A DNA stretch of 42,701 nt from Verrucomicrobiota bacterium. Its GTDB lineage: Bacteria > Verrucomicrobiota > Verrucomicrobiia > Limisphaerales > Palsa-1400. Positions 1,575 to 37,766 of this stretch are shown here, in pieces (within the stretch, counting starts at the first letter, position 1; the number at the start of each line of letters is the position of its first letter). The stretch is from NCBI GenBank assembly GCA_050015895.1, contig JBEKAN010000001.1:1-42701 (forward strand), written 5' to 3'. The notes beneath the pieces were generated by a model. The model was not told where the DNA came from and did not search any database. It saw nothing but the letters and a program-made list of their open reading frames with translations. The translations under genes and the position numbers were made by a program.

Positions 1575-2651
1575 GTGAAACAAGCCCAACCCAATTATCC
1601 GGCGCGATGGTGGAAACCGCTGGCCGACGGGCGGATCGAATGCGATGTTTGCCCGCGGTTGTGCAAACTGCACGACGGGCAGCGGGGGTTCTGCTTTGTG
1701 CGCCAGAACATCGCCGGGCGAATGGTGCTGACCACTTACGGTCGAAGCAGCGGCTTTTGCGTGGACCCCATCGAGAAGAAGCCGTTGAACCATTTTTATC
1801 CGGGGACCAGCGTGCTTTCCTTCGGCACGGCGGGGTGCAATTTGGGTTGCCGGTTCTGCCAGAACTGGGACATCAGCAAGGCGCGGGAGTTCGACAAGCT
1901 GGCGGAGGAGGCGTCGCCGGAGGCCATCGCCGCGGCGGCGCGGCGGATGGGAAGCCGGTCGGTGGCGTTCACCTACAATGATCCGGTGATCTTCGCCGAA
2001 TACGCGATGGACGCGGCGGACGCCTGCCGGCGGGCCGGGGTGGCCGCGGTGGCGGTGACGGCGGGCTACATGACGGAGGAGTCGCGGCCCGAGTTCTACC
2101 GGCATATTGACGCGGCGAATGTGGATTTGAAGGGGTTCACGGAGGAGTTTTATCACCGCCAATGCTACGGCGAACTGGAGCCGGTGCTGGAGACGTTGAA
2201 GTATTTGCGGCGCCAGACCGGCGTGTGGTTCGAGGTGACGACGCTGCTGATTCCCGGCGAGAACGACAGCGAGGCGGAAATCGAGAGGGCCTCGGACTGG
2301 TTTGCGGCCAACCTGGGGCCGGACGTGCCGTGGCACTTCACGGCGTTCCATCCTGATTACAAGATGCTTGACAAACAGCCCACGCCGCCGGAGACGCTCA
2401 CGCGGGCGCGGGCCATCGCGCGGGCGCGCGGGCTGCGCTACGTCTATACCGGCAATGTGCATGACCGGGAGGGCGGGAGCACTTGGTGTCCGGGCTGCGG
2501 TCAGCGGGTGATCGAGCGCGATTGGTTTGTGATCGGCGAGTGGGGTCTGAAGGGCAACCGTTGCGCGCATTGCGGATTTGAGATCGCCGGCCGCTTTGAC
2601 AGCCGGCCCGGCTCGTGGGGCGGCGGCCGAGAGCGCGTGCGGCTGAGCTGA
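1575..2651 (+). CDS. amrS: AmmeMemoRadiSam system radical SAM enzyme
   Basis: GTG start at 1575; there is no nearby in-frame ATG. 358 aa. The CX3CX2C radical SAM motif is present (CNLGCRFCQNW). There is an N-terminal Cys cluster (CDVCPRLC...GFC) and a C-terminal CPGCG...CAHCG ribbon-like motif. Confidence 0.9.
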   Translation: MKQAQPNYPARWWKPLADGRIECDVCPRLCKLHDGQRGFCFVRQNIAGRMVLTTYGRSSGFCVDPIEKKPLNHFYPGTSVLSFGTAGCNLGCRFCQNWDISKAREFDKLAEEASPEAIAAAARRMGSRSVAFTYNDPVIFAEYAMDAADACRRAGVAAVAVTAGYMTEESRPEFYRHIDAANVDLKGFTEEFYHRQCYGELEPVLETLKYLRRQTGVWFEVTTLLIPGENDSEAEIERASDWFAANLGPDVPWHFTAFHPDYKMLDKQPTPPETLTRARAIARARGLRYVYTGNVHDREGGSTWCPGCGQRVIERDWFVIGEWGLKGNRCAHCGFEIAGRFDSRPGSWGGGRERVRLS

Positions 2652-2718
2652 TTGGCGGAGCGCATGAATCTCAGGCGGGAGATGGTGTGGGCACGCGCGA
2701 CTGTACGATAACAGCAGC

Positions 2719-2747
2719 TTGCGTTTTTGGCCGGACACAAGTAAATT
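2719..2747 (+). promoter_or_regulatory. Sigma70-like promoter candidate for the TA pair (TTGCGT-N17-TAAATT), possibly giving a leaderless mRNA
   Basis: -35 at 2719-2724 and -10 at 2742-2747. The antitoxin ATG at 2754 is only 6 nt after the -10 element. Confidence 0.3.
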
Positions 2748-2753
2748 TTCACA

Positions 2754-2954
2754 ATGAGTGTTCAGGAGATCAAAGAAGCAGTGCAATCTCTCAGCCTGCA
2801 GGAACGGGCGGAGGTCGCGGCCTGCCTTCATTCGTGGAGCGACGACGGGTGGGATGAACAGATGAAACGGGATTTGGCCTCCGGCAGACTCGACAAGGTT
2901 CTAGCCCAGGTGGATGTGGACATTGCGGAAAACAAACTTCGCGGCCTGCCGTGA
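2754..2954 (+). CDS. Putative antitoxin (addiction-module component-like)
   Basis: 66 aa and acidic. The N-terminus (SVQEIKEAVQSLSLQERAEV) resembles the 'putative addiction module component' family. Its stop overlaps the GTG start of the next ORF (GTGA). Confidence 0.65.
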   Translation: MSVQEIKEAVQSLSLQERAEVAACLHSWSDDGWDEQMKRDLASGRLDKVLAQVDVDIAENKLRGLP

Positions 2955-3220
2955 TTTCGCGGACGCACGGCCAATTTTGGGAGTGCTTCGGTGGCTTGCC
3001 GGGGGACATTCAGCGGATTGCCAGTGAGAAGTATCGGCTATGGGAACAAGACTGTTTTCATCCTTCGCTCCATTTCAAACCATTGAAGAATGATGTTTGG
3101 TCGGTCAGAATCAACCAGAGCTACCGGGCTTTGGGCCGGCGCAAAGGAGCGTTGATAGTGTGGTTCTGGATCGGCAACCACGCAGAGTACGACAAGTTCG
3201 TGAAGCACGCGTCCTTTTGA
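2951..3220 (+). CDS. ParE-like / RelE-superfamily type II toxin
   Basis: 89 aa. The C-terminal WSVRINQSYRALGRRKGALIVWFWIGNHAEYDKF matches the ParE-like toxin consensus (yRAlg...WfWIGsHaeYdk). It has a 4-nt overlap with the upstream small acidic ORF. Confidence 0.75.
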   Translation: MISRTHGQFWECFGGLPGDIQRIASEKYRLWEQDCFHPSLHFKPLKNDVWSVRINQSYRALGRRKGALIVWFWIGNHAEYDKFVKHASF

Positions 3221-3320
3221 TTCATTCAGTCTCCCGCAATCCGCTTGATCTCGCCTTCCCATTGTCCATAGGCGATGGAATTGCCGATGATTCATCCTCG
3301 AGGCGATAAATATCAGGTGG

Positions 3321-3477
3321 TTACGGCCGGCGGGTCATCGAGCGCGACTGGTTTGTGATCGGCGAGTGGGGCCTGAAGGGCAACCGCTGCGCGCGCTGCG
3401 GATTTGAGATCGCCGGCCGCTTTGACGGCCGGCCCGGCTCCTGGGGCGGCGGGCGCAAGCGTGTGCGCTTGAGTTGA
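3321..3477 (+). pseudogene. Orphan 3' fragment of an amrS-type radical SAM gene (duplicate of 2505-2651)
   Basis: In frame it reads RVIERDWFVIGEWGLKGNRCARCGFEIAGRFDGRPGSWGGGRKRVRLS*. This is 46 of 49 residues identical to the C-terminus of the intact gene. It has no start codon and no upstream gene body. Confidence 0.85.
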
Positions 3478-3520
3478 TTGCCGTTATTCAGTATGCGGCT
3501 GAGGGACCACGCCGCGAAAG

Positions 3521-3540
3521 GCGGCGGGGCGCGCCGCCGC
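3521..3540. terminator. GC-rich hairpin between convergent genes (GCGGCGG-ggcgcg-CCGCCGC)
   Basis: 7-bp perfect stem read directly. It sits between the + strand amrS fragment and the stop of the - strand giant gene. There is no clear U-tract. Confidence 0.3.
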
Positions 3541-3557
3541 AGCCGCAAAGAGAATTC

Positions 3558-6500
3558 TCACGGTTGGATCAGGACGCGATAGAAGCGACCCGAATAGGCG
3601 GCGGCCAGGGGGTCGTCAAAAAGCAGGGCGCCGGAGAACGGAGTGTTGGTTTGCAGGGAGGTCCAATCCACCAAGTTTGTGGACCCCTGGATGAGGGCCG
3701 AGGTGGCGCTTGGACCGCTGAAGGAGAATTGGAAGTGACCATTGGCGAGCAGGGTCGGGCTGGCGAGGAGCGTGGCGCGCACCACGCTCAAAGTCACCGC
3801 CGTGGCGCCGTAGGTTGTCTCCCAGGCCAAATTGCCCGGCAGGGGGGGAAGTTGCTGGGAGGCAAATTGGCCGGTCTCCGACCCGTAGGTGAGGATGGCG
3901 AAGGATTGGCCGTTGGTGGGGATGAAAGAGTTGGTCAAAACGACGGACAGAATTCCCCCCAGCGTGGCGGAACCGGCGAAGGTCTCCAGGCTGAACTGGG
4001 CGCCGGGATTCGGGCCGCCCAGGGCCAGGTTGAGCCGCGGGGAACCGGACAAAGTGTACCCGGCGTTGACGGCCAGAGTGCCGGTTTGCAAATCCACCGT
4101 CCCGAGATTGTTGAAGTTGACACCTCCATTGGCGGAGTCGAAGACCGTCGCGCCCGTCGTGATTTGTTTTCGGAACGTGCCGTTGTTGATGAAAGCCGGC
4201 TGCCCGTAGTAGCCGGCTCCGACGCCGTTGTCATAGAAAAAGCCGCTGTTCTGGATGACAAAGGTGGTGTTGTTGTTGATCGCGCTTCCACAGGAAGCGA
4301 CGATATTGCCGCCGTTCCAATAAGCCGCGCTGTTGTTCGTGAGGCTGGCGAACTGTAGGGTTTTGTCCGCCGAACCGGTCAAGTTGAAGGTGAGGTTCGC
4401 TTGCACGCCGAGGGCCGCCGCAATGACGCCGCCGGTCCAGTTGAAAGTTCCGGTTCCGCCAAAGGTTCCGGTTCCATTGACGGTTCCCCCGGCGTCGAGT
4501 TCGAAAGCGCCGCCATTGTTGAAAACCACGTTGCCGCCCAGAGACAGGCTGCCCGCGGTGAGAAGCCGGATCAGCCCGGGGCCATTGAAGCTGATGAGGC
4601 CGGGGCCGAAGAGATGAGCGCCTCCGTTGAAATCAATCCGCGACCCGGCGGCGGCGGTGAAGGCCGCAGTGGTCAAGGCCGCAGTGGCATCGCCGCCGCC
4701 GCCCCCCAGCGCCAGGAAACCGCTCTGGACACTGACCGTGCCCTGATTATTGAAGGCCACGCCGCCATTGTCCGGCGGGAACAGGGTGGTGTTGGCGCTG
4801 TTGGTCTTCACAAAGATGCCGTTGTTGACAAACACCGGTTGGCCGTAATAGCCGGCTTCGACGCCGTTGTTGGTAAAGGACGAGTCGTTCTGGACGGTGA
4901 AGGCGCCGTCGTTTTGGAAAATGCTGCCATAGCTGCAAACCACCGCTCCGGCCCCGGTCCAAAGGCCGTGGGCGGCGCTGTCCAGCGCGCCGAGAGTGAG
5001 GGTCTTCGGGCCGTCGCCGGTCACGTTGAAATTGAGGTTCGTTTGCAGGCTGAGGACCGCCGAAATGACGCCGCCGGACCAGTTGAAAGCTCCAGAGCCG
5101 CCAAAGGCCCCGGTTCCATTGAGGGTGCCAGCCGCCAGCTCGACCGTCGCTCCGAGTTGGATCATATTGGTGCCGTTGATCGTGAGGGTCCCCGCGTCCA
5201 CGCGGGTTTCGCCCGGGCCGGCAAAGACGGCGCCTCCGTTGACGTTGAACGCACCCTGCGAACTCAAAACACCGTTTTCGACGTCAATGGTTCCATTCTG
5301 GTTGAAGGTCCACCCTCCTTCGTCGGGGGCGACAATGGTGACGCCGTTGGAATTGGTTTTTTGGAGCCAGCCGTTGTTGACGAAGACCGGAAGGGAGTAG
5401 TAGCCGGCTTCGAGGCCGTTGTCATAGAAAAAGCCGCTGCTCTGGATGACAAAGTTGGCGTTGTTGTTGATCGCGCTTCCGTAGGAAGCGACGATATTGC
5501 CCCCGTTCCAATAAGCCGCGCCGTTGTTCGTGAGGCTGGCGAGGAAGAGGGTTTTGTCCGCCGAACCAGTCAAGTTGAAGGTGATGTTCGTCTGCAAACT
5601 GAGGGCCGCCGAAATGACGCCGCCGGTCCAGTTGAAAGTTCCGGTTCCGCCAAAGGTTCCGGTTCCAATCAGGTTTCCCCCGGCGTCCAGCTCGAAAGCG
5701 CCGCCATTGGTCAAGTTGACGACCCCGTTGCCGCCCCCAAAGACGCCGCCCAGATCAAGGGTTCCTGCTGTAAGAAGCCGGATCAGCCCGGGGCCATTGA
5801 ACTTGACAAGGCCGGGGCCGAAGAAGTGATCGCCCGCGGTCAGATCAATCTCCGACCCGGCGGCGACGGTGAAGGCCGCGGTGGTCGAGGTGGCATCGCT
5901 GCCGCCGCCCCCCAGCGCCAGGAAACCGCTCTGGACACAGACGGCGCCCTGATTGTTGAAGGCCACGCCGCCATTGTCCGGCGGGAACAGGGTGGTGTTG
6001 GCGCTGTTGGTCTTCACAAAGATGCCAGTATTGACAAACACCGGTTGGCCGTAGTAGCCGGCTTCGACGCCGTTGTTGGTAAAGGACGAGTCGTTCTGGA
6101 CGGTGAAGGCGCCGTCGTTCTGGAAAAGGCTGCCATAGCTGCAAACCACCGGGCCGGCCCCGGTCCAAAGGCCGTGGCCGGCGCTGTCCAGCGAGCCGAG
6201 AGTGAGGGTCTTCGGGCCGTCGCCGGTCACGTTGAAGTTGAGGTTCGTTTGCAGGCTGAGGACCGCCGAAATGACGCCGCCGGACCAGTTGAAAGCTCCA
6301 GACCCGCCAAAGGTCCCGGTTCCATTGACGGTGCCAGCCGTCAGTTCGACCGTCGCTCCGAGTTGGATCATATTGGTGCCGTTGATCGTGACGACTCCCG
6401 CGTCCACGCGCGTTTCGCCCGGGCCGGCAAAGAGGGCGCCCCCGTTGACATTGAACGCGCTCTGCGAACTGAAAGCGCCGTTTTCGACATCAATGGTTCC

Positions 6501-9479
6501 ATTCTGGTTGAAGATCCACCCTCCTTCGTCGGGGGCGACAATGAGGTCCCCATCGGAATTGGTTTTTTGGAGCCAGCCGTTGTTGACGAAGACCGGAAGG
6601 GCGTAGTAGCCGGCTTCGAGGCCGTTGTCATAGAGAAAGCCGCTGCTCTGGATGACAAAGGTGGCGTTGTTGTAGATCGCGCTTCCATAGGAAGCGAGGA
6701 TATTGCCCCCGTTCCAATAAACCGCGCCGTTGTTCGTGAGGCTGGCCAGGTAGAGGGTTTTGTCCGCCGAACCGCTGAGGTTAAGCGTCGCGCCGGCGGA
6801 CACGTTGTAAATGCCGACCAATGTCCCGCCCGACCAATTGAAGACCCCGCTGGAGGGAAGGCTGATGGCTCCGCCATTCAGCAGGCCGCCGGAGAAATTG
6901 AGATTGGTGATGAGCATGCCCGCTGTGGTAAGCGCGCCGCCGGACATGTCCAGCCGATAGAGCTGGAGGCTCCCCAATTGGCTATTGTCAGGAGAGTAGC
7001 CAGAGTTGATGATCACCTGCGCATTCGACGTGGGGACACTACCGACGTCCCAGTTGGCCGGTGTGCTCCAGTAATTATTCCAGTTGTCGGGATCGGGGTC
7101 CAGGAAGCTGCCGGCGGTGTAAACATAGACCGGATGATAATTCACCGAAAAACTCGTGATCAGGTCCGAGCTTTCGGGCGGGCATTCATTGTTGGCGACG
7201 ATGACCTCCACCTGATAGCCGGCATTCGGCAGGTCGCTCCCGCTGGGCATCGGGTTGGTCACCAGCCACGCCGCAGTTGTCGCGTTGTAACTCACCCCCA
7301 ACGAGGTGGAAACGGAGCTCCAGCTCGTGCCAGTCCAGTAGAGCACTCCGTCGCCGCTGGTGAACTGATTCAGATAAACCGTCACCGAAGCAACGCCCGT
7401 TTCCAGGTCCAAAGCCGAACCGGACAGAGGCAACAAAGCATTATTGGTAATCACGTCGCGGGAGTGGACCGTGTCCAGCGTGACCACCGGCGTCGTCGTG
7501 TCGGGAGCGGAGCGCGTGACCAGGATTTGGTTGGTAAACAGGTTGCCGGCGACATCCTCCGGGACGACCCACAGGAGGTAGGGGCCGGAACGAGTTTGGC
7601 AGCGGGTGGGCAGAGTCACACCGGTCGCCGGCGCCCAGGTTCCGCCCGAGTTGCTGGCGTCCAGATAGACGGAGGGGTCGTTTCCGTTGGAAATCCACGA
7701 AGAACCGTTCCAGAAAAGATTGTTGACGCCGCTGGGATCATACTGTTGAATCACAAACACCACAAAGGCGCTCGATTCGTTGACGGAGCCGCCGATCTGC
7801 GAAAAGTCGAAAACCACCTCGTTGTTGACCAGCGGGTTGAAATTCGCGAAAAGAGGATTGAACGTGACAGGATCGGAGGCGATGCCATTGGCGACGACCT
7901 GCATGGAAAAGTTATCCAGATGGTTGTAGATGTTCGTGGGCAGCATCGCCTCGGTGGTGACGACCCGGTCGCCCGTCATCACGCTCGTGCTGCTCCAACC
8001 GTAAGTGGTCCCGTAATAGACTTCGCCGGCGGCATTGGTCAACCGGACCAGCGGGTAGTTGCTGTCCATCTGGGCGTCGTCGCCGTAAGCCGCGCCCTGG
8101 GAGATGCCATTGAACCCCGTGCCGATCAGATGCACCGTGCCGTCCGGGTTCCACGAAATATTCTGAAGGTCCGGCTTGCCGGCCGCCAGGGGCGAGGCAT
8201 CGGGCTTGTAAACGAAAAGTTGGCCGCCCCCCAGGCTGTTGGTGCTGCCGTCGGTGAACAGGACGGTGCCGTCCGGCAGGTCGAGCATTCGGTTCGAGTA
8301 AGTCGTTCCCGCGTCGGCAAAGGTGCCGTACGGAGCAAGAATTTCCGTGAACGCGCCGACGGGGCCCGCGCTGTAGTCGTATTCAAAAAAGTAGGTGGGC
8401 GGAATGAAGACGTTGGTCGTTCTGGGCGGGCCCACACCAAAGTACGGAGTGCGAGAAAAAGCACAGAGGATTTTGCCGTTGACCATCATCGCCGCCGGGG
8501 CGTCGGGCGCACCCAGACCGGCCGGAATGTTCGGGCCGGCTGTCCAGGCGCCGGCATTGGTGGTGCCGCTGGGGACATAAATGGCGGTGTTGGAGGTGCT
8601 GCCCAGGTAAAAAGCGTTGCCGTTGGGCAGGAGAAAGGCCGCCCCGCTTTCACCGCCGACCGAATCATAGATGTTCACGGGAACATTGGCGTCGGCGATC
8701 CACTGGTTCAAGGCCGGGATGTAGCGCTCGGAAGTGTTGGTAAAGGAGTCAATTACAAGGATGCTGTCGTCGGGCAGCTTGAGCAGGCTCGCCTCGTCCA
8801 AGTCCACGCCACGATGAAGCGTCGGCCCGAGGGACATGGTGTCCGAGGAGGGATTGAAGAGAACGGTGCTGCCGTAGTAGTAGGGGACAACCGGGGTCAC
8901 CAACACGTCGCCGTTGGACAAAATCACGCTGCCGGAGTCCATGAAGCCCGTGGTGTTTGCGCCCTGCGCGTCAATCGAGTTGGTGGTTGTGAGCAGCCCG
9001 AAGGGCACGGGGATGATGGTCCAGGAATCGTGGAAGGGATCATAAACCTCGGCGTTGGTCGTGCCGTTGCCATACTCGGCGCCGGCGATGAAAACGCGGC
9101 CATCCTGAAGCACATCGGAGGAATAATAAAGCCGGGAGTAGTTCATCGAGGCGCGAGAGGACCAGGTGCCATTGGTGTAACCGCCCGTGCTGTCGGGCGT
9201 GAGCCGATACCAAATGGTGGTCGAGAGATTGCCGCCGCCTTGAGCCATCACGGTGCCGTCGGAGAGAAGCAGCATGGTGCCGATTCCATCCGGAGCCGGC
9301 TGCTGCACATTTAACCAGGTGCCTTCGGCGTTGGCGGGCGGCGGCAACAAGAAACCGCAGAGGGCCAGCGCGGCTCCAATGCGCCGCCAGCCTGGCAGCA
9401 ACCGCGAGCGGATTTTTGGTGTTGTCAACGGAGCAGGGACGCGCGGAGCACCGCGGTCACGGGTTGAGGGACGGATCAT
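3558..9479 (-). CDS. Giant secreted surface protein: beta-propeller (kelch/galactose-oxidase-like blades) + Ig-like domains + repetitive beta-helix region + C-terminal beta-sandwich tail
   Basis: The in-frame ATG at 9479 gives MIRPSTRD...RRIGAALALCGFLLPPPANAEG, a signal-like N-terminus. The ORF-track start at 9806 would run into the helicase gene. There are repeated hydrophobic-DG-x-V blades (LSDGTVMAQGG, QDGRVFIAGAEYG, LPDGTVLFTDG). Five FNW(S/T)GG-led units follow. The tail ends GHFQFSFSG...STNLVDWTSL...GRFYRVLIQP. Confidence 0.85.
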   Translation of the reverse strand: MIRPSTRDRGAPRVPAPLTTPKIRSRLLPGWRRIGAALALCGFLLPPPANAEGTWLNVQQPAPDGIGTMLLLSDGTVMAQGGGNLSTTIWYRLTPDSTGGYTNGTWSSRASMNYSRLYYSSDVLQDGRVFIAGAEYGNGTTNAEVYDPFHDSWTIIPVPFGLLTTTNSIDAQGANTTGFMDSGSVILSNGDVLVTPVVPYYYGSTVLFNPSSDTMSLGPTLHRGVDLDEASLLKLPDDSILVIDSFTNTSERYIPALNQWIADANVPVNIYDSVGGESGAAFLLPNGNAFYLGSTSNTAIYVPSGTTNAGAWTAGPNIPAGLGAPDAPAAMMVNGKILCAFSRTPYFGVGPPRTTNVFIPPTYFFEYDYSAGPVGAFTEILAPYGTFADAGTTYSNRMLDLPDGTVLFTDGSTNSLGGGQLFVYKPDASPLAAGKPDLQNISWNPDGTVHLIGTGFNGISQGAAYGDDAQMDSNYPLVRLTNAAGEVYYGTTYGWSSTSVMTGDRVVTTEAMLPTNIYNHLDNFSMQVVANGIASDPVTFNPLFANFNPLVNNEVVFDFSQIGGSVNESSAFVVFVIQQYDPSGVNNLFWNGSSWISNGNDPSVYLDASNSGGTWAPATGVTLPTRCQTRSGPYLLWVVPEDVAGNLFTNQILVTRSAPDTTTPVVTLDTVHSRDVITNNALLPLSGSALDLETGVASVTVYLNQFTSGDGVLYWTGTSWSSVSTSLGVSYNATTAAWLVTNPMPSGSDLPNAGYQVEVIVANNECPPESSDLITSFSVNYHPVYVYTAGSFLDPDPDNWNNYWSTPANWDVGSVPTSNAQVIINSGYSPDNSQLGSLQLYRLDMSGGALTTAGMLITNLNFSGGLLNGGAISLPSSGVFNWSGGTLVGIYNVSAGATLNLSGSADKTLYLASLTNNGAVYWNGGNILASYGSAIYNNATFVIQSSGFLYDNGLEAGYYALPVFVNNGWLQKTNSDGDLIVAPDEGGWIFNQNGTIDVENGAFSSQSAFNVNGGALFAGPGETRVDAGVVTINGTNMIQLGATVELTAGTVNGTGTFGGSGAFNWSGGVISAVLSLQTNLNFNVTGDGPKTLTLGSLDSAGHGLWTGAGPVVCSYGSLFQNDGAFTVQNDSSFTNNGVEAGYYGQPVFVNTGIFVKTNSANTTLFPPDNGGVAFNNQGAVCVQSGFLALGGGGSDATSTTAAFTVAAGSEIDLTAGDHFFGPGLVKFNGPGLIRLLTAGTLDLGGVFGGGNGVVNLTNGGAFELDAGGNLIGTGTFGGTGTFNWTGGVISAALSLQTNITFNLTGSADKTLFLASLTNNGAAYWNGGNIVASYGSAINNNANFVIQSSGFFYDNGLEAGYYSLPVFVNNGWLQKTNSNGVTIVAPDEGGWTFNQNGTIDVENGVLSSQGAFNVNGGAVFAGPGETRVDAGTLTINGTNMIQLGATVELAAGTLNGTGAFGGSGAFNWSGGVISAVLSLQTNLNFNVTGDGPKTLTLGALDSAAHGLWTGAGAVVCSYGSIFQNDGAFTVQNDSSFTNNGVEAGYYGQPVFVNNGIFVKTNSANTTLFPPDNGGVAFNNQGTVSVQSGFLALGGGGGDATAALTTAAFTAAAGSRIDFNGGAHLFGPGLISFNGPGLIRLLTAGSLSLGGNVVFNNGGAFELDAGGTVNGTGTFGGTGTFNWTGGVIAAALGVQANLTFNLTGSADKTLQFASLTNNSAAYWNGGNIVASCGSAINNNTTFVIQNSGFFYDNGVGAGYYGQPAFINNGTFRKQITTGATVFDSANGGVNFNNLGTVDLQTGTLAVNAGYTLSGSPRLNLALGGPNPGAQFSLETFAGSATLGGILSVVLTNSFIPTNGQSFAILTYGSETGQFASQQLPPLPGNLAWETTYGATAVTLSVVRATLLASPTLLANGHFQFSFSGPSATSALIQGSTNLVDWTSLQTNTPFSGALLFDDPLAAAYSGRFYRVLIQP
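4250..6900. repeat. Intragenic tandem repeat, period about 1191-1206 bp (unit types A-B-A-B-A), roughly 90-95 percent identical by eye
   Basis: FNW(S/T)GG codons recur at about 6838, 6287, 5633, 5081 and 4440. The shadow ORFs 4996-5400 and 6202-6606, and 4333-4617 and 5524-5829, translate to near-identical peptides. Confidence 0.85.
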
Positions 9480-9560
9480 GGTTATTGGTTTGATTTCTGG
9501 CCGGGGGTGAGGACCCGAACAGGTTTGGGCGCGTGGTTGTCCACAAGCGCAACGCAAGTG

Positions 9561-9588
9561 ACTATAACACAACGCGGAGTTTACGCAA
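9561..9588 (-). promoter_or_regulatory. Sigma70-like promoter candidate for the giant gene (TTGCGT-N16-TATAGT on the minus strand)
   Basis: -35 is the reverse complement of 9583-9588 and -10 is the reverse complement of 9561-9566. It lies about 80 nt upstream of the ATG at 9479, in the helicase/giant-gene gap. Confidence 0.3.
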
Positions 9589-9619
9589 GGGGGTGTTTTC
9601 CCCGTACACGACGCCGGGA

Positions 9620-12106
9620 TTAATGGCGGCGCAGGATAAGGCGGTGGTCCACGCGCTTGGTTTGATGATATTCGAGGGGGGGGAGTTGGGTGAGGGTGGG
9701 GGAGACGGTTTCGTGCAAGATGTCCCGCGCCAAATCGCGCAGCTTTTTCCAGCGCGCCCAATCCAGGTCGGGCGCGTGGGCGATGCGGCGCAATAAACTG
9801 CGCCATTCGATGATGATGCGGTCAATGTCGCCCGCGCCCAGAAGTTCGGTGACCCATTGGTGCTTGCTCAAGGGGTCGCGGTGAACGCCGGCCACGACCG
9901 GCCCGGCGCCAGCGCCGTATTTGGGCGGAATCCCATTTTCCAGATAACCGGGGATGGTTTGGGCGCTGTAGGTTTTTTGACAGATTTGCGCCAGACGGCC
10001 CGACCAACGACTGTCCTCGCCGCAAAAGCGGTAGGTGGCGTCCAGGTTGGCGAGGTCGTACACCAATTCTTCGACCGGATAGGTGTCATCCTCCAGCGCG
10101 GCGGCCAGGGCCAGGCCGTCGCCCTGGGAAAAAAAGCCGGCGACGCGCCCGCGCCGCGTTGGCGCGCCGGAGGCCTCGATGAGGCCAAGACGCCGCCAGA
10201 GCAGGGCGACGCCGGTGGCGGTGGGCAGCTCGCGGCAAACGGGAACCAGAGGACATTGGGCGCAGTCCGGCGGCAGGACATCGCGCTCGGGCGGTTTCCA
10301 CAAGGCCACACCGTGGCTATCCACCGGCACACGCAAGGTCAGGCCGGCGATGCTCAGGCAGGCCATGATGCGGGAGGATTCGTCCATCATGCGGACCAAG
10401 GGCATGTTTTGGGCGGCGAGTTTTTGCTCCAGCAAGGGAACGATTTTTTCGGTCCAGACCGCCAGAGGCGCCTGGCGTCCGTTCCAGGAGATCAGGCGGC
10501 GGACCCATTTGTTGAGGAGAACGCGGTGGTCGTTGAGGCGGTCGGCCACGGTGATGGCGCGGCCATAGGTTTTGCCGCGAGCGTCCTCGCCGAGGAGACA
10601 TAATTTGCCCGGGCCGACTTTTTCGAGCGCGGCGGCGTCGCCCAGGACGCTGTGAAAACGCGGCGCGGGATCGCCGGGAGCGGCGGGAGGCATGACCAGG
10701 ATTTCGCGCAGCGGAATGTCGCGTGGCGGCGGGCAATCTTCCCATTCGCCGCGGCTGTTTTGGATTTGACGGACCAGGCGGCGGACATGACGGGCGCGTT
10801 CGGCGTCCATTTTGAGGCCGCACGGGGTCTGCGGATTTTTCATCGCCTGCTCGACACCCAAGGCGACTGGTTTGGTGGTGAAAAGACGCTCCTGCACGCG
10901 CACGGCCTGGAGGAAAGGATCGCCGCCTTGATCGGCGGCGGCGGCCATCAGACCCAGAAGCGCGTTCCAATCCACCAGCCCGGCGCGGGCGAGATGGACG
11001 GGGCGGGCGTCCAGCAGGCGGAGTTGGTTGGCGGTGATGAGGATGAAGCCGGTTTCGTCCAAGCCGCGGCGTCCGGCGCGGCCGAACATTTGCAGGATTT
11101 CATCGGCGCGAAGGAGCTGCTCCTGCTGGTCGCGTTTGTAGGATTCGGCGGCGAGGGCGACGCTGCGCAGGGAGAAGTTGATTCCCGCCGCCAAACCCAT
11201 CGTGGCGACGACGACGCGCAACTGGCCGGCCTTGGCGAGGGGTTCGACGACGCCGGCGCGGGCGGCGTAGCTCAACCCGCTGTGATGAAAAGCGACGCGG
11301 GATTTCAACATTTTGGCGAGGGATGCGCCGGCAAGGGACTTTTGCTCGGCGGTCAGGCTCAGGGGATTTGGCACTGGAAGGACGCGGGCCAGTTCGGAGG
11401 CCATGGATTCGGCGGCCTGGCGGCGCGGGGCGAAGATGAGAATAGGGCCGAGGTCTTCGGCCAAAGCTTTAGCCACCAGGCCCGGCCAATAGCCCTTGAG
11501 GTCCGCGGGAAGATGGTAACTGAGATTGTTGGGGTGGACCTCCTCCAATGGAACGGGGCGCTCCTCGTGGCGGATGAGGACGGCTTGACGACCGAGGCGC
11601 TCGAGCCATTTGACGACTTGCTGGGGATTGGCGACGCTGCCGCTGAGGAGCAGAAGTTGCGTGCGGGGCGGCGCCAGCGCGAGGGCCAGCTCGTAATTCA
11701 AGCCGCGGTCCTCGTCGCCGAGCATTTGGTATTCGTCCACGACGAGCAGGGCCGGGCCGTCGCCGCGGATGAGGCGGTGCTTCTGGGTCTCCAGGGTGGC
11801 GACGAGGACCGGGGCGGAGAGGTTCTCGCTCAGATCGCCGGTGGCGATGCCGACATCCCAGCCGCGCGCGCGCCATTCGGCCAGTTTGTCATTGGCCAGA
11901 GCGCGGGTGGGAACGGTGTAAACGGCCTGGCCGCGGTTTTTTCCCTGATTGGACCAAAGCTCGAAAATCAAGGTCTTGCCCGCGCCGGTCGGGGCCTGGA
12001 CGACAACGTCCCTGCCGTCGCGCAAGGCGGTGACGGCCTGCTGCTGCCAGAGGTCGGGAAGGAGGACGCGCTGGAGGGAGGGGAGATTTTCCAACTTTTG
12101 GGCCAT
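9620..12106 (-). CDS. Ski2-like DEAD/DEAH-box superfamily 2 helicase with a long C-terminal extension
   Basis: ATG at 12106 (MAQKLENL); the track start at 12115 is GTG. Walker A is QAPTGAGKT. Motif II is VVDEYQML. SGS and FHHSGL...VVVATMGLAAGINF are helicase C-domain motifs. About 400 aa C-terminal to the core are unassigned. Confidence 0.85.
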   Translation of the reverse strand: MAQKLENLPSLQRVLLPDLWQQQAVTALRDGRDVVVQAPTGAGKTLIFELWSNQGKNRGQAVYTVPTRALANDKLAEWRARGWDVGIATGDLSENLSAPVLVATLETQKHRLIRGDGPALLVVDEYQMLGDEDRGLNYELALALAPPRTQLLLLSGSVANPQQVVKWLERLGRQAVLIRHEERPVPLEEVHPNNLSYHLPADLKGYWPGLVAKALAEDLGPILIFAPRRQAAESMASELARVLPVPNPLSLTAEQKSLAGASLAKMLKSRVAFHHSGLSYAARAGVVEPLAKAGQLRVVVATMGLAAGINFSLRSVALAAESYKRDQQEQLLRADEILQMFGRAGRRGLDETGFILITANQLRLLDARPVHLARAGLVDWNALLGLMAAAADQGGDPFLQAVRVQERLFTTKPVALGVEQAMKNPQTPCGLKMDAERARHVRRLVRQIQNSRGEWEDCPPPRDIPLREILVMPPAAPGDPAPRFHSVLGDAAALEKVGPGKLCLLGEDARGKTYGRAITVADRLNDHRVLLNKWVRRLISWNGRQAPLAVWTEKIVPLLEQKLAAQNMPLVRMMDESSRIMACLSIAGLTLRVPVDSHGVALWKPPERDVLPPDCAQCPLVPVCRELPTATGVALLWRRLGLIEASGAPTRRGRVAGFFSQGDGLALAAALEDDTYPVEELVYDLANLDATYRFCGEDSRWSGRLAQICQKTYSAQTIPGYLENGIPPKYGAGAGPVVAGVHRDPLSKHQWVTELLGAGDIDRIIIEWRSLLRRIAHAPDLDWARWKKLRDLARDILHETVSPTLTQLPPLEYHQTKRVDHRLILRRH

Positions 12107-27409: not shown

Positions 27410-29625
27410 AGGCCCCACCGCCTTCGCAAGAACCAGTCCAGACCCAACAATAACCCAGCCAGGTAAAAAACCCAAGCCTCATTCCACACCGGGCGCAGGA
27501 TGGTCTTGGGCGTCTGGTCGGCCTTCAGGCCGCTGACATCCTTGAGCAATTTCGGCAGCTCGTCGGGTTGGATCAGCCGTCCGCCGCTGCTTTCGCACAG
27601 CTTTCGCAGATACACGGTGTCCGCGGCCACTTCGGTCTCCTCGAGATTTTCCGCGAAGACGATGAAACGGGATTCCTGCGTCGTGCCGTCGGGCAGAGTG
27701 ACTGAGGCGCGATAGCGACCGGGGCGTTCGGGCAGAAAATCCCCCGCCAGCCTGCCGGCGCTCTCCGGGACGGCCGTCAGGTTCACGCGGCCCACTTCGG
27801 CGTCGCCGAAGGAAACGGTGACGGGCGCGGTTTGCAATTGCAGATTGGGCTGGCGCAAGGCCATGCGGAAATAGACCTTTTCCCCCAGCAAAATGTCGGC
27901 GGAGTTGAGGCGGAAGGAAACCTGGCGATTGGGGTTGAAATCGCGTCCGGCCAGCAGCCACAAAAGCATCTGGTCCCAAAAGCGGTCGAACGGGGAATTG
28001 ACCCCCTGGACTTTGGAGGCCAGCGCCCAGCGCCACAAGCCGGCCACGCCGATGCTGACGACCTGGCCGCGGCCGAAACGCCGGTGGATGATCGCCGCCT
28101 GCGCGCCGGCGTCATCGCGGCCCGCGGCGACGGCGAAGGTGGAAGTCAGCGGCTTGAGTTCGGAGGGAGTTTTTGCGTCCAGCAAATCCGGCAGCGCGTC
28201 CAGCCCGCCCTCGGCGTCGTTCAAAACCTGAAAGGGGGACATCGCGCGGCCTTCGGCGGTGACGTCCAGGTGAACGCGGTCGCGCGATTTGCCCCCCCAC
28301 AAGACCGGTTCCAGATCGCTGGCCGAATTGGCCGCGAAGGCGCGGCCGCGGCTGAAAATGACCGTGCCGCCGGCTTCGCTGACATATTGATCGAGCAAAC
28401 CCATCGGCGCGCCGGCGGAGGCGGCGCTGGAGGGCGGGGACAAGGGGAGGAGCGAATCCACAGCGCGGCCCAGAATGATGACGTCGTAGGCGCTGAGTTG
28501 ATCGAGGGTCCGCGGCGCCCGCAGTTCGCCGGCGCCGGGGGATTTGCGAATGGCCCGGACATGGTTGGGGCCGAACTGGATGAGGGCGTCGAGGTCAATC
28601 TTGTCGTTGCGCAGGAGAGAGCGCTGCAGGAAAGTGGAGTCCCAATAGGGATCGCCCTCGAGGAGCAAGACGCGGATTTGGTCGTCCAGCACATTGAGGT
28701 AGGTGATGGCGCTGTTGTTGGCGGTGTCCACCTCGTTTTCCAGCGGCGGCACGCGGACCTCGTATTCGTATTGGCCGATATCCGGTTCGCTGACCTCAAA
28801 TTCGACCGGCAGCTCCTGAAGCTGCTGGGCGTTGACCTGTTTGGTCTGGACCACCTGCCCCTGGCGCAGCAACTGGACGGTCAGGTCCTCCAACTCGCAA
28901 CCGATCAGGCGGAGCGTCGCGTTGATGCGGGCCTTTTGTTTGACGTAGCAATAGGGCTGAAAACCGGTGATATGGACGCTGACATCGCGCACGTTGCCCT
29001 GCCTGCCCAGCGCCACGGCGTAAATCGGCGTCCGGCGATTTTGCGCCAGCGCGCCGGTCTTGACGGGATTGACCAGATCAAAATCATGGCCGTCGGTGAG
29101 CAAAATCAGAGCGTTGGCCGCCTCGTCGGCCGGGGTCGCGCCCAACATGGTGCCCACTGATTTGTGAATGCGGGTGGTCCGGCCCTCGGGCGCCAGGTCC
29201 ATGATGGATCGGGTGATGGGCCGGGCGTCGTCGCTGAATTCAAACAAGCGCAGGAGGGGATCGGCCGCCAGTCCGCCGGGGGAAACCGCGCCGGCCTCCA
29301 GCAGCAGGCCGCGGGCGGCGTCGAAGCGGGTTTTGTCGCCCGCGTCGCGCTGTTTCATGCTCAACGAGCTGTCCAGGCCGATCAAGGTGACCTGGTCCCG
29401 CGTCGGCGGCGGGAGGAACTGGCGCCGGGAGGGTTGGAGGAGCAGCGCGAGGACCAGAGCCAGGCCCGCCAGGCGGAAGATCATCAGCGCCAGCGCGCGC
29501 CCGCGCCCGACGCTGGCGCAGACGCTCCAATAAATCCGCACGGTCAGATACAAGAGCAGCAGGCCCATCAGCGCGACGACCGGCGGCGGGAGAATTGGAT
29601 CCAGGATGACGCCGCTGGAGGTCAT
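27403..29625 (-). CDS. Membrane protein with a VWA-like domain (MIDAS-like DSSLS) and a large C-terminal domain
   Basis: The internal ATG at 29625 (MTSSGVILDPILPPPVVALMGLLLLYL...) overlaps the upstream stop by 4 nt. TLIGLDSSLSM is a DxSxS motif. There is a C-terminal TM helix (AWVFYLAGLLLGLDWFL). The track's N-terminal 388 aa are shadow sequence over the neighbouring gene. Confidence 0.75.
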   Translation of the reverse strand: MTSSGVILDPILPPPVVALMGLLLLYLTVRIYWSVCASVGRGRALALMIFRLAGLALVLALLLQPSRRQFLPPPTRDQVTLIGLDSSLSMKQRDAGDKTRFDAARGLLLEAGAVSPGGLAADPLLRLFEFSDDARPITRSIMDLAPEGRTTRIHKSVGTMLGATPADEAANALILLTDGHDFDLVNPVKTGALAQNRRTPIYAVALGRQGNVRDVSVHITGFQPYCYVKQKARINATLRLIGCELEDLTVQLLRQGQVVQTKQVNAQQLQELPVEFEVSEPDIGQYEYEVRVPPLENEVDTANNSAITYLNVLDDQIRVLLLEGDPYWDSTFLQRSLLRNDKIDLDALIQFGPNHVRAIRKSPGAGELRAPRTLDQLSAYDVIILGRAVDSLLPLSPPSSAASAGAPMGLLDQYVSEAGGTVIFSRGRAFAANSASDLEPVLWGGKSRDRVHLDVTAEGRAMSPFQVLNDAEGGLDALPDLLDAKTPSELKPLTSTFAVAAGRDDAGAQAAIIHRRFGRGQVVSIGVAGLWRWALASKVQGVNSPFDRFWDQMLLWLLAGRDFNPNRQVSFRLNSADILLGEKVYFRMALRQPNLQLQTAPVTVSFGDAEVGRVNLTAVPESAGRLAGDFLPERPGRYRASVTLPDGTTQESRFIVFAENLEETEVAADTVYLRKLCESSGGRLIQPDELPKLLKDVSGLKADQTPKTILRPVWNEAWVFYLAGLLLGLDWFLRRRWGLC

Positions 29626-31700
29626 GCCGGTCTCCTCCGCAGGAGAAACTGGAAGCCGCTTTCCAGCAGCAGGAAGGCGAGCGCGCCCGCGATGAACCAG
29701 TGGTAGATGGGCCGGCCGCGGGCCAGTTGGTCGTAATCGTCGCCGCCCGCGACCAGATGCGCCTCGTGGTTGTCGGCGAACTCCGTCGGCAACAGGCCCA
29801 GGTCCATGGGCCGCAAGTCGGATTGGTCGGTGGCGGCGTTGACGGCGAAGGCATAGGCCGGGCGGGGCGCGCCCAGCGTGTAGAATCCAAGCTGGTCGGG
29901 CGTGAAGGAGAGGCTGCAGCGCTCGCCGTTCAACTCCCGTGTGTTGGCGACGGCCGTTCCGGCGGGACTGAGGAGATCGTCGCGCATCTCCGCGCGCCAG
30001 ATTTCCGTCTGCAAGGTTTCCCCGAAGGTGTGCGAGGAGGGAGGCGGCTCGGAGGTGGCTAGGGCTTTGACCAAGTCCTGCATCCACGCCGGGAAAATCC
30101 GCTGGCGGGCCAGGTTGCTGGAGAATTCGCCGGCGGAAAAATTGAGCAGGAGCATCTCGCCCAGCCCGTGATGGAGGGCCGCCATGGCGGGGGAGCCGTC
30201 CCCGAACTCCAGCAGCACGCCGCCCGCGCTGGTCGCGCCGGCCTGGTAATAATCGTAAAACTCCAGCAGCGCCAGGTCCTGGCGCGTGGTGCCCTGGAAT
30301 AATTTCAGGTAGGGCGAATTGAAATCGCCGCGGACGATTTGCTGCGCGCCGGCGGTCACGTTCGTGGCCACGTTGCGCCGGGACAACCGCATGGGCATCG
30401 AGTTTGTGCCGATGGCCTTCTCCAGCCCGGCCAGGTTTTCCGCGTCCGCCGGGCCGTCCAGAAAATAGACCAGCCCGCCGCCGCGAAAAATAAATTTCCC
30501 CGCCGCGTCGCAGGCCTCCGGGGCGAGGCGGTTGATCCGGGTGAAGAAGACCTTTTCCACCCCGGCCAGGCGCGCCGGGGAAAGTTCGGCGGAGGAGACG
30601 ACCCGCGGCAGGAGGGAGCCGGCGTCGTTCTCGAAGGGGTTGAGGGCGGTCTTGAGATAATACGCGCCGGCGCGCGGGTCGTCCGCCGCGTCGGTGACGA
30701 TCAGCACCTCCTCCTTCTCCAGGACGGACAGAGTCAAGTAAAAGTGGTTGTCGTACTCCAGCGCGTCGGGGGGCAGGCGGACCTCGCAAAAATGGACTCC
30801 CGGACCGCCGACGGAGACGGGCACGGTGACTTTTTCCTCCGCCCAGGGCGCCATGGAAACCTCCTGGTCAAAACTATATTTTTTGTCGAGCGTGGCGGTG
30901 ACGCGGCCGACGAAGGGATCGGGGCTGTAATTGCCGATGGAGATTTCCAGGGGCACCGTGTCGCCGGCCAGCATTTGGGTTTGCGAGGGCCGCGCGTCCA
31001 GAATCGCGCGGTTGTCGCGGCGGGCCGGGCCGACATTCTCGAAGAACAATTTTGCGGACGGCGGGAGCATTTTGAAGTTCACGCTGGCCCATTTTTTGCG
31101 CCCGAAATCGGAGATGTAATGGATCTCGGGCCGCGGGGCTTTTCGGCCGAGGAGCCGCGCCGCGGCGGTGTTCGCGGCGTTGACATCGGCGCGGCCAAAC
31201 CCGGGCTTGAGCTGGTCCAGAAACCGTCTCGCCCCGGCGAAGTCTTTGGAGAACGAGGCGAAGCACGTCCGCAAACCCGGCTCCATGAGAAGGAGGTTCA
31301 CGCTGTCGGCCGCCCCGAGCGAATCCATCAGTTTGGCCGCCTCGTGGGCGGCGCGCTCGCGGGAAGGCGGGCCGTCGCCTTTGTCCTCCATGCTGACCGA
31401 GTGATCGAGCACGATGAGTATTTGGCGGCCGGTTTGATCGGCTGGATTGGAGCCCAACCGGCGGAGGACGGGCTGAAGAAAGGCCAGCAGGAGCAGGGCC
31501 AAAACGACGGTGCGCAGCAGCAACAAGATCCAATGCCGCCACTTTTGCAATTTGGAGCGGCGCGCCATCGTCGCCCGGATCAGTTCAATGGAGGGAAATC
31601 TGAAGTGGCGGGGAAAGCCCTTGTTGAGGAGATGCAGCACCAAGGGGAGTCCGATCAAGGGAATCAAAACCGCCAACAAGGCTGGGCTTAAAAAGGACAT
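29622..31700 (-). CDS. BatA-type protein (aerotolerance-regulator N-terminal membrane domain + VWA domain)
   Basis: ATG at 31700. MSFLSPALLAVLIPLIGLPLVLHLLNK is the BatA N-terminal signature. ILIVLDHSVSM is a MIDAS DxSxS motif. 692 aa. Confidence 0.8.
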   Translation of the reverse strand: MSFLSPALLAVLIPLIGLPLVLHLLNKGFPRHFRFPSIELIRATMARRSKLQKWRHWILLLLRTVVLALLLLAFLQPVLRRLGSNPADQTGRQILIVLDHSVSMEDKGDGPPSRERAAHEAAKLMDSLGAADSVNLLLMEPGLRTCFASFSKDFAGARRFLDQLKPGFGRADVNAANTAAARLLGRKAPRPEIHYISDFGRKKWASVNFKMLPPSAKLFFENVGPARRDNRAILDARPSQTQMLAGDTVPLEISIGNYSPDPFVGRVTATLDKKYSFDQEVSMAPWAEEKVTVPVSVGGPGVHFCEVRLPPDALEYDNHFYLTLSVLEKEEVLIVTDAADDPRAGAYYLKTALNPFENDAGSLLPRVVSSAELSPARLAGVEKVFFTRINRLAPEACDAAGKFIFRGGGLVYFLDGPADAENLAGLEKAIGTNSMPMRLSRRNVATNVTAGAQQIVRGDFNSPYLKLFQGTTRQDLALLEFYDYYQAGATSAGGVLLEFGDGSPAMAALHHGLGEMLLLNFSAGEFSSNLARQRIFPAWMQDLVKALATSEPPPSSHTFGETLQTEIWRAEMRDDLLSPAGTAVANTRELNGERCSLSFTPDQLGFYTLGAPRPAYAFAVNAATDQSDLRPMDLGLLPTEFADNHEAHLVAGGDDYDQLARGRPIYHWFIAGALAFLLLESGFQFLLRRRPA

Positions 31701-31703
31701 GGG

Positions 31704-32783: not shown

Positions 32784-32813
32784 GGGATTGGATCGGCATG
32801 GTCATGCCGGGGG

Positions 32814-33797
<984 letters not shown>

Positions 33798-37458: not shown

Positions 37459-37730
37459 TTAGTACATTGTGTGGAGGCCTGATCTTCGCGTCAGGAACTC
37501 CTGGCCTCCGGGCTGCGGGTAGGCGCGCTGGTTTTTCCGGGTGTCCGGCAAGCTCACGCCAGTGCCACCGATCACCGTGACGCGCAAACCGTGCAAGAGT
37601 TGGCCCGCCCGGTCGGCCCGCGCGGGCAGGGCGCAGCGGAGCCGGGGCAAGAGGTCCCAGGACAGACGTTGTCGGGCCTGGCGCAGGTTGCTGAAGATGA
37701 GGACGAAAACCGCCTGAAAACAAAACTGTG
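37459..37730 (-). pseudogene. Remnant of an IS4-family (DDE) transposase gene, truncated at both ends
   Basis: The minus-strand frame reads ...LLHGLRVTVIGGTGVSLPDTRKNQRAYPQPGGQE.... This resembles the IS4 N-terminal catalytic block (W.G.R..A.DGT...LPDT.EN...Y/F). The expected catalytic D of DGT is G here. There is no start codon and the downstream reading frame is lost. Confidence 0.45.
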
Positions 37731-37766
37731 CATAGCCGCCGACTTGTATTATCCTCCACCTTAGCG

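Follow-up and report, generated by a model that had tools for sequence, protein, structure and literature searches.

A toxin-antitoxin pair between two diverged copies of the amrS 3' end in a Limisphaerales bacterium: possible scar of a decayed integrative element

A 42,701-nt (42.7-kb) stretch of DNA from a bacterium of the Verrucomicrobiota (Limisphaerales; Palsa-1400; NCBI GenBank assembly GCA_050015895.1, contig JBEKAN010000001.1, positions 1 to 42,701), referred to here as the window, carries a toxin-antitoxin (TA) pair enclosed by two diverged copies of the 3' end of amrS, the gene for the AmmeMemoRadiSam radical SAM enzyme. The first copy (copy A) is the tail in use of an intact amrS, and the second (copy B) is a truncated tail further downstream. 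Our results indicated that both tails evolved under purifying selection and that the TA unit between them is foreign and mobile, while the arrangement is absent from the sampled relatives. We tentatively read the locus, with a probability of roughly 45%, as the scar of a decayed or non-autonomous integrative element at the amrS 3' end, with copy A as the presumed contribution of the element and copy B as the presumed displaced native end.

Anatomy of the amrS locus

The window opens with an AmmeMemoRadiSam operon in which amrB, amrA and amrS follow one another in that order (Table 1). The amrS product scored 617 bits with TIGR04337 (cut-off 220), in an alignment that spans the whole model (positions 1-349 of 349), and also matched Pfam Radical_SAM. 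This full-length match, together with the adjacent genes for AmrA and AmrB, places AmrS among the AmmeMemoRadiSam radical SAM enzymes.

A repeat search detected a direct repeat of 165 nt (2493-2657 and 3319-3483; 88% identity, offset 826), and blastn of the two tail copies gave an E-value of ~3e-55. Compared base by base, clean homology extends from 2504/3330 to 2657/3483, that is, through the stop codon and 6 nt past it. A preliminary description of this DNA, made without database searches, had reported that the amrS 3' end at 2504-2655 recurs at 3330-3481 around the TA pair, and both the repeat search and the base-by-base alignment found these coordinates to be correct. The 5' edge of the repeat is degenerate, with 7/11 bases matching between 2493-2503 and 3319-3329; at this edge the conserved Cys of a CPGCG motif has become Tyr in copy B, and a Gln has become Arg. 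The tail copies showed no similarity upstream of 2493 or downstream of 2657, and the longest identical run between them is 30 nt. The insert measures 826 bp including one tail and can formally be placed at either 2504-3329 or 2658-3483. The DNA between the tails amounts to 0.67 kb and holds the TA pair alone, and copy B adjoins a hairpin and a convergent gene for a giant protein.

Both junctions were reproduced in 8 assemblies from different samples (ENA MEGAHIT, Logan and four JGI metagenomes). Junction-spanning contigs, some of them 21 kb and 101 kb long, were 100% identical to the window, except for one Logan contig (L003) with a single mismatch (99.9%). All window-type contigs were identical over 12.6 kb, so that they offer no strain-level single-nucleotide polymorphisms with which to map recombination.

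Table 1 Features at and around the amrS 3' end (positions of the window; GC, G+C content)
Feature	Position	Strand	Remarks
amrB, LigB/Memo-like, 288 aa	11-877		Upstream of amrS; TIGR04336 22.2 bits, below cut-off 26
amrA, AMMECR1, 185 aa	906-1463		Upstream of amrS; TIGR04335 99.8 bits, cut-off 99
amrS, AmmeMemoRadiSam radical SAM enzyme, 358 aa, intact	1575-2651	+	Last ~50 codons are copy A
Copy A, amrS tail in use (49 last codons, stop, 6 nt)	2504-2657	+	Weak homology back to 2493
Left flank of TA unit, GC 0.60	2658-2717	+	Homologous to left flank of TA copy in L123
Conserved TA core, 507 nt, GC 0.54 (36-nt upstream block, antitoxin, toxin, 4 nt)	2718-3224	+	
Putative antitoxin, 66 aa	2754-2954	+	No family assignment
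ParE-like toxin (predicted), 89 aa	2951-3220	+	Pfam PF24732
Right flank of insert, 94 nt, GC 0.50	3225-3318	+	Seen only in this strain
Copy B, truncated amrS tail without start or body	3330-3483	+	Weak homology from 3319
GC-rich hairpin between copy B and stop of convergent 2082-aa gene	3494-3547	not assigned	
Giant repeat protein gene, 2082 aa, convergent	3558-9806	minus	

Divergence of and selection on the two tails

Over the 48 codons that can be compared (2505-2648 and 3331-3474), the tails differ at 15 positions, of which 11 are third positions; 12 differences are synonymous and three are non-synonymous (H/R, S/G, E/K). The preliminary description had counted about 15 differences, mostly synonymous third-position changes with three altered residues, and the exact comparison bore this out, with 45/48 residues identical. 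Nei-Gojobori estimates were 0.45 for synonymous divergence (dS) and 0.028 for non-synonymous divergence (dN), giving a dN/dS of 0.06; under neutrality, 12 or more of the 15 changes would be synonymous with a probability of only 1e-5. When the changes were polarised with five relatives (L028, L029, L109, L110 and L112), derived changes fell on both copies and were mostly synonymous, at a synonymous to non-synonymous ratio of ~6:1 on copy A and 4-5:1 on copy B. This suggests that both tails belonged to functional genes for nearly the whole time of their separation, and the changes on copy B further suggest that its truncation is recent in comparison with the split of the tails. The earlier view of the tails as diverged homologues under purifying selection is thereby upheld. 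With 88% identity and a dS of 0.45 the copies are far from the near-identity that would have pointed to a simple recent duplication, and a fresh duplication followed by decay is excluded.

The two tails appear to share an origin within one lineage. None of the 120 best AmrS homologues has more than 37/48 residues in common with either tail, in comparison with 45/48 between A and B, which argues for a common origin of both tails within this otherwise unsampled lineage; about eight derived residues are common to both tails and absent from all relatives. No sampled relative is closer to one copy than to the other, and because of this the native copy is not identifiable by phylogeny. Nor does GC at third codon positions (GC3) tell the copies apart, at 0.81 for copy A, 0.875 for copy B and 0.84 for the gene body.

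The A/B dS of 0.45 is close to the distance from the nearest relative, L028, with about a third of synonymous sites differing. For the same 48 codons, every pair of the relatives' orthologous tails gave a dN/dS of 0.18-0.45, with 10-27 non-synonymous differences and a dS of 0.42-1.4; at a dS comparable to that of A and B, orthologous tails have 10-21 non-synonymous differences, compared with three here. The low A/B ratio may stem in part from under-corrected saturation, given the gene's GC3 of 0.84. If real, it would mean that the tails were held to one lineage-specific protein sequence while synonymous sites drifted. An element-borne tail that co-evolved for long with one host lineage and an early burst followed by stasis would fit this equally well, and the low ratio is evidence for neither model. 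A crossover mosaic at 2547-2560, suggested when L028 alone served as outgroup (copy A seemed ancestral towards the 5' end and copy B towards the 3' end), dissolved with five outgroups.

Related genomes and the DNA beyond copy B

In the five nearest relatives, which belong to the Verrucomicrobiota/Limisphaerales and come from peat and similar sources, amrS is uninterrupted, no TA pair is present and the downstream genes differ. An unoccupied target site thus exists in related genomes, though at 81-86% protein identity only. The possibility that the arrangement is ancestral and universal in the clade, considered in the preliminary description, can be set aside, as it was found neither in these relatives nor in 85 amrS loci. 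The same description had anticipated relatives in which an uninterrupted amrS is followed by the DNA from 3482 onwards. This was borne out in part: amrS is indeed uninterrupted and the gene order of L028 is alike, but an empty site of the same species was found neither in the AmrS search nor in the contigs of 8 runs. A full-length AmrS search returned nothing between 100% and 86% identity, a scan of genome contigs yielded relatives at no more than 81% identity, and a search with the 49-aa peptide of copy B returned only copy B's own 40-aa open reading frame (ORF); this last search was clearly insensitive. The lineage lies on a long branch, its nearest relative having 85% nucleotide identity.

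Two candidate traces of the arrangement outside this species were rejected. The sole joint in Logan contigs that skips the insert belongs to the relative L028 (85% identical) and is not an empty site of this species; four further runs had no joints. A second tail match in L029 is part of a convergent paralogous radical SAM gene and not a scar. This paralogue (5105-6427, minus strand; 440 aa) converges on amrS, resembles it in its CxxC...CxxC tail and is extended at the N-terminus.

Beyond amrS, the gene order of L028 is that of the window beyond copy B, with amrS converging on a giant surface-protein gene (2385 aa). Only the C-terminal 64 aa of this protein and of the 2082-aa protein of the window are recognisably alike, and the gene downstream of amrS differs in every relative. 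The hairpin next to copy B has a minimum free energy of -22.7 kcal/mol (z -2.2; 3/200 shuffles fold as well), no comparable hairpin follows copy A, and a scan for terminator consensus found none. The hairpin is probably the native terminator region. The synteny with L028 and the presence of a hairpin after copy B but not after copy A suggest that the DNA to the right of copy B is the old chromosomal neighbourhood.

The toxin-antitoxin unit and its other contexts

The toxin matched Pfam PF24732 (ParE_like) with an E-value of 1.8e-10 (41.1 bits; cut-off 24.4) and had no match in PDB sequences, NCBIfam or PHROGs; its AlphaFold model was of low confidence (predicted local distance difference test score, pLDDT, 49) and was not used. 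The ORF of the putative antitoxin overlaps the toxin start by 4 nt (GTGA), and no family match was found for it in Pfam, NCBIfam or PHROGs at E-values up to 10. It is always paired with the toxin across chromosomal contexts. The toxin family match and this coupled, co-conserved small upstream partner lead us to predict a type II TA system of the ParE/RelE superfamily. The pair is conserved across contexts, with nucleotide identities of 83-84% throughout (87% in the chimeric contig L115). The toxin has a between-context dN/dS of 0.10-0.15 and the antitoxin one of 0.25-0.31, which indicates purifying selection on both. Read by eye, the 36-nt upstream block contains TTGCGT (2719-2724) and TAAATT (2742-2747) with a 17-nt spacer; a consensus promoter scan did not call these motifs.

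Toxins with at least 83% identity were found on dozens of contigs, and the TA operon occupies at least three other chromosomal contexts. The TA core lies, at 83-84% identity, between a GH2 glycosidase gene and mgsA in related Verrucomicrobiota (L009-L026, L116-L122 and L124), after a DegT gene in L027, and in a further locus, L123. The left flank in L123 matches 41/60 bases of window positions 2658-2717 (score 36, against -4 +/- 7 and a maximum of 21 for shuffles), so that the TA-associated DNA begins exactly at 2658, where the tail homology ends. The GC of the insert (Table 1) compares with 0.62-0.65 in the host. More distant toxin homologues occur on an IMG/VR phage contig and on cyanobacterial plasmids. 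Taken together, the other chromosomal contexts, the phage contig and the plasmids support the notion that the TA pair is mobile.

Several further observations concern the TA copies elsewhere. The phage contig (L113; IMG/VR UViG_3300044708_000022) belongs to a tailed phage and carries its toxin homologue (4765-5261; 48% identity) between the genes for the large terminase and the major head protein. The ORF upstream of the homologue (79 aa) is unrelated to the antitoxin of the window, and this sequence context suggests partner swapping within the toxin family. An apparent overlap of the TA pair with the DegT gene in L027 was due to an artefactual frameshift in that assembly. The TA pair of L027 is directly followed by another small gene pair (6427-6787), consisting of a gene with a weak DUF433 match and a 64-aa ORF, which suggests that TA-like modules cluster in the DegT context. 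In Logan runs X1, X2 and X4, the depths of GH2-context and window-type TA contigs were 8.5 vs 7.6, 4.5 vs 4.55 and 6.9 vs ~6, respectively, and one genome may carry both copies. Contigs L115 (765 nt) and L119 (1458 nt) are reciprocal chimeras between these two TA loci: L119 is 100% window-type up to 2838 and GH2-type onward, and in L115 the left part follows the GH2 type and the right part the window type. Either MEGAHIT fused 84%-identical sequences, or the two contigs represent real recombinants.

A decayed integrative element as the tentative reading

A comparable anatomy is known from the e14 region of Escherichia coli K-12, where the tail of icd and its displaced counterpart icdC gave, with the same measurements, 165 nt of homology at 93% identity, 12 differences (10 of them synonymous), a dS of 0.36 and a dN of 0.016, with an abrupt 5' boundary and homology that ends 2 nt past the stop. 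Phage 21 also integrates in the 3' end of E. coli icd. As at icd, the target gene in the window is intact, its last ~50 codons would come from the insert, and a truncated second tail lies at the far end. The amrS case (154-165 nt, ~90% identical, 12/15 differences synonymous, dS 0.45, dN 0.028) is the same as e14 in every measurable respect, including the abrupt 5' boundary and the end of homology a few nucleotides past the stop. As in an integrative element, direct repeats from the 3' end of the target gene bound the insert and the gene is kept intact. The e14 element, whose locus and excision have been described (PMC13626634), differs in being 15.2 kb long, in excising on SOS induction and in carrying the integrase IntE, the excisionase XisE and phage genes. 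The 0.83-kb amrS insert, in contrast, carries a TA pair only, lacks a recombinase and gave no sign of excision in the contigs searched.

Genomic islands at tRNA or tmRNA genes likewise use a gene's 3' end as their site, supply a replacement end and displace a partial copy to the other border. They differ in that the target here is protein-coding, so that the replacement end diverges at synonymous sites, and in that no integrase is present; no tRNA was found in the window or in related loci, and the Rfam search was empty. Cis-mobilizable elements (CIMEs) are decayed integrative and conjugative or integrative and mobilizable elements (ICEs/IMEs) that keep both attachment (att) sites, attL and attR, and have lost their integration and transfer genes (PMC5704250). 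A cognate ICE/IME at the same att site is a defining trait of CIMEs, and none was found for amrS in searches of limited sensitivity; there is also no sign that any integrase recognises the amrS repeats, and the insert is smaller and lies in Verrucomicrobiota rather than Firmicutes. With regard to chromosomal type II TA "islets" of the ParE/RelE kind, the unit is similar in its two small overlapping genes, its several contexts, its occurrence on a phage contig and plasmids, and its GC below that of the host. It is unlike them in that its antitoxin has no recognisable family and in that diverged gene-end repeats flank this locus only; its activity is predicted from the sequence.

In the reading that we tentatively favour, a foreign piece of 826 bp would have been inserted at the amrS 3' end, made up of a tail, a flank of 60 nt, the TA operon together with the region upstream of it, and a flank of 94 nt. 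It would have supplied the working last ~50 codons (copy A, the attL side), so that amrS stayed whole, and pushed the original tail (copy B, the attR side and counterpart of icdC) downstream, where it would still lie beside the native hairpin and the giant gene. The assignment of the tails follows from their neighbours: copy A is fused directly to TA-associated DNA, as expected of an end supplied by an element, and copy B is followed by the native hairpin and the syntenic giant gene, as expected of a displaced native end. An element bearing an integrase would have integrated site-specifically at the 5' edge of the repeat, with the identical blocks GCGGGT (2504-2509) and ATCGAGCGCGA (2511-2521) as candidate cores. 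It would then have decayed to an integrase-less stub comparable to a CIME, of which the addictive TA module may be the part most resistant to deletion; the lack of identical runs of more than 30 nt between the repeats would limit loss by homologous recombination.

Several results weigh against this reading. The preliminary description had noted a cargo of only about 0.7 kb without a recombinase, and this was borne out: the only ORFs of the insert are the two TA genes, so that no recombinase lies within the supposed element, and no integrase, transposase or other recombinase domain was found in the insert, in the large ORFs of the window or in 10 kb upstream. Neither an excision joint (a skip of 826 nt) nor a circle joint was found in Logan contigs of 8 peat/wetland runs, in which contigs drop rare variants. 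Searches of IMG/VR viral contigs and GenBank phages, of limited sensitivity, detected no AmrS tail, and no other element with amrS as its target appeared among these sequences and 85 amrS loci, with the same limit on sensitivity. No second amrS tail copy was present in the 85 loci (flanks up to 4 kb), the identical core at the 5' edge of the repeat is no longer than 6-11 nt, and the lineage that donated the second tail is unsampled. At the other sites of the TA core, the pair lies in intergenic DNA and no flanking repeats were found. This also disappoints the earlier expectation of TA cassettes next to amrS fragments elsewhere, and it argues that the TA pair can move without such a mechanism and that the TA core alone is not the integrating unit.

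On balance, the claim that an element integrated into a gene's 3' end with its own replacement stands with regard to the anatomy and the quantitative match with e14/icd/icdC, but not with regard to site-specific integration, for which neither an integrase nor an excised or circular form was found. Other kinds of mobile DNA fit less well. An integron gene cassette was rejected, as the flanks fold no better than shuffles (z +0.5) with no attC-like fold, and no integrase was found. A transposon, insertion sequence or miniature inverted-repeat transposable element was likewise rejected, with no terminal inverted repeats at the boundaries of the core or insert and no transposase. The flanking repeat is too long (154-165 nt) and too diverged for a target-site duplication. 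Comparison of the two flanks of the insert with one another and with the DNA downstream of copy B gave no significant similarity. The stretch GCGCATGAATCTCAGG (2660-2675), just after copy A, resembles GCGATAAATATCAGG (3302-3317), just before copy B; the two would bracket the tail in a circular form, but the resemblance is not significant (p ~0.1).

Alternative explanations

The alternative that survives best, although we consider it rather unlikely, is a one-off recombinational import from a sister lineage without a dedicated element. In its likeliest form, the TA pair landed in intergenic DNA after the native amrS, much as at its other sites, and a later import replaced the variable downstream region with its giant surface-protein gene by DNA from a relative, with a donor fragment that began ~160 nt inside the donor's amrS and whose left side was joined illegitimately. 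Alternatively, a fragment of a relative comprising an amrS tail and the TA pair could have entered by a homologous crossover inside amrS and an illegitimate joint at the other end, or a single Campbell-type crossover in the tail could have brought in a small circle. An import needs no integrase, as observed, and the TA core lies in plain intergenic DNA in its other contexts. The downstream gene differs in every relative, and only the 64 C-terminal aa of the giant protein are recognisably alike in L028, which points to the region as a replacement hotspot, and the degenerate 7/11 edge at 3319-3329 could be a microhomology joint. The lack of a recombinase and of a second instance thus favours import over a decayed integrative element.

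Other features are harder to reconcile with an import. The tail homology ends 6 nt past the stop with nothing alike beyond, whereas orthologous intergenic regions might keep some similarity; a dedicated replacement end fits this better than two orthologous intergenic regions do. In homology-facilitated illegitimate recombination, duplication of recipient sequence is rarer than deletion, so that the joint required here would be the less common outcome. The polarised changes gave no clean crossover mosaic, and the donor lineage is unsampled for an import too. The abrupt end of homology and the close match with e14 therefore lead us to favour the integrative-element reading over import.

It is improbable, in our view, that the 826-bp unit is instead a living minimal integrative cassette, made of an att site, a replacement amrS tail and the TA pair and moved by a recombinase acting in trans. 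That recombinase would come from elsewhere in the genome or from a helper element, and the tail would have co-evolved with the host AmrS. Such co-evolution could explain a dS of 0.45 with 45/48 residues kept, about eight of them lineage-specific.

Very improbable is an old in-place duplication of the amrS tail, with copy B kept for a function of its own, for example as the 40-aa ORF at 3355-3477, and the TA pair inserted between the copies. The reading frame of copy B is free of frameshifts and stops and carries a single derived amino-acid replacement, the 40-aa ORF was called as a gene on two contigs, and the long branch (nearest relative 85% identical in nucleotides) leaves room for an old, lineage-specific event. 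But copy B lacks the first CxxC of a zinc-ribbon-like motif and has the Cys to Tyr change at its edge. The stretch from the stop at 3307 to the GTG at 3355 contains no in-frame start, but even so the differences at 3330-3354 are of the synonymous type only. No relative carries a small ORF like that of copy B, and a tandem duplication leaves unexplained why foreign DNA of lower GC lies exactly between the copies.

An assembly artefact, in which the assembler stitched together two strain variants of the amrS tail, can practically be dismissed: chimeric contigs that join window-type and GH2-type TA copies do exist at the locus (L115 and L119), but three assembly pipelines gave identical sequence from different samples, through both junctions as well as the unique TA sequence that they enclose, which argues that the arrangement is real.

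Significance

If the integrative reading is true, the locus would be a CIME-like scar of integration with gene-end replacement, unusual for its small size, its TA-only cargo, its host phylum and its target gene. It would represent a very small gene-end-replacing integration, extending the phenomenon to Verrucomicrobiota and to amrS as a new target, and a clean natural case of a TA pair as the last surviving cargo, as the addiction or anti-deletion hypothesis predicts. For annotation, a truncated, synonymously diverged gene tail shortly downstream of its gene can mark an integration scar even without an integrase. If import is the true explanation, the locus would be an ordinary by-product of gene exchange between peat-bog strains. 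The spread of a TA unit of 0.5-0.6 kb without recombination genes to at least four chromosomal sites raises the general question of TA mobility, which the built-in molecular clock of the two tails could help to address.

Neighbouring features

The amrB and amrA genes are separate in the window and form a single fused gene (478 aa) in L028, L109 and L110; in L112, the 357-aa product on record has both AmrB and AmrA domains. In the window the split falls in the linker (875-905), with a stop followed by a short GTGAATTA tandem. The gap between amrA and amrS (1479-1559) contains a hairpin with 32-nt arms made of TAATCC/GATTAG-type hexamer repeats (inverted repeats I1-I3), and Logan contig depth there was ~10x that of neighbouring bins in all four runs, a sign of a repeat family that is common in these peat metagenomes. 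Genes in L009 and L022 are bordered by a comparable GCATTCT repeat. The 2082-aa giant protein contains internal repeats of ~1.2 kb with 78-93% identity. Further along the window are a BatA/VWA/DUF58/MoxR operon at 29622-33797 and, at 37728-41641, a Type ISP restriction-modification enzyme (Type_ISP_C, ISP_coupler, N6_Mtase) followed by a polyvalent-protein kinase-domain gene, which may form a defence islet.

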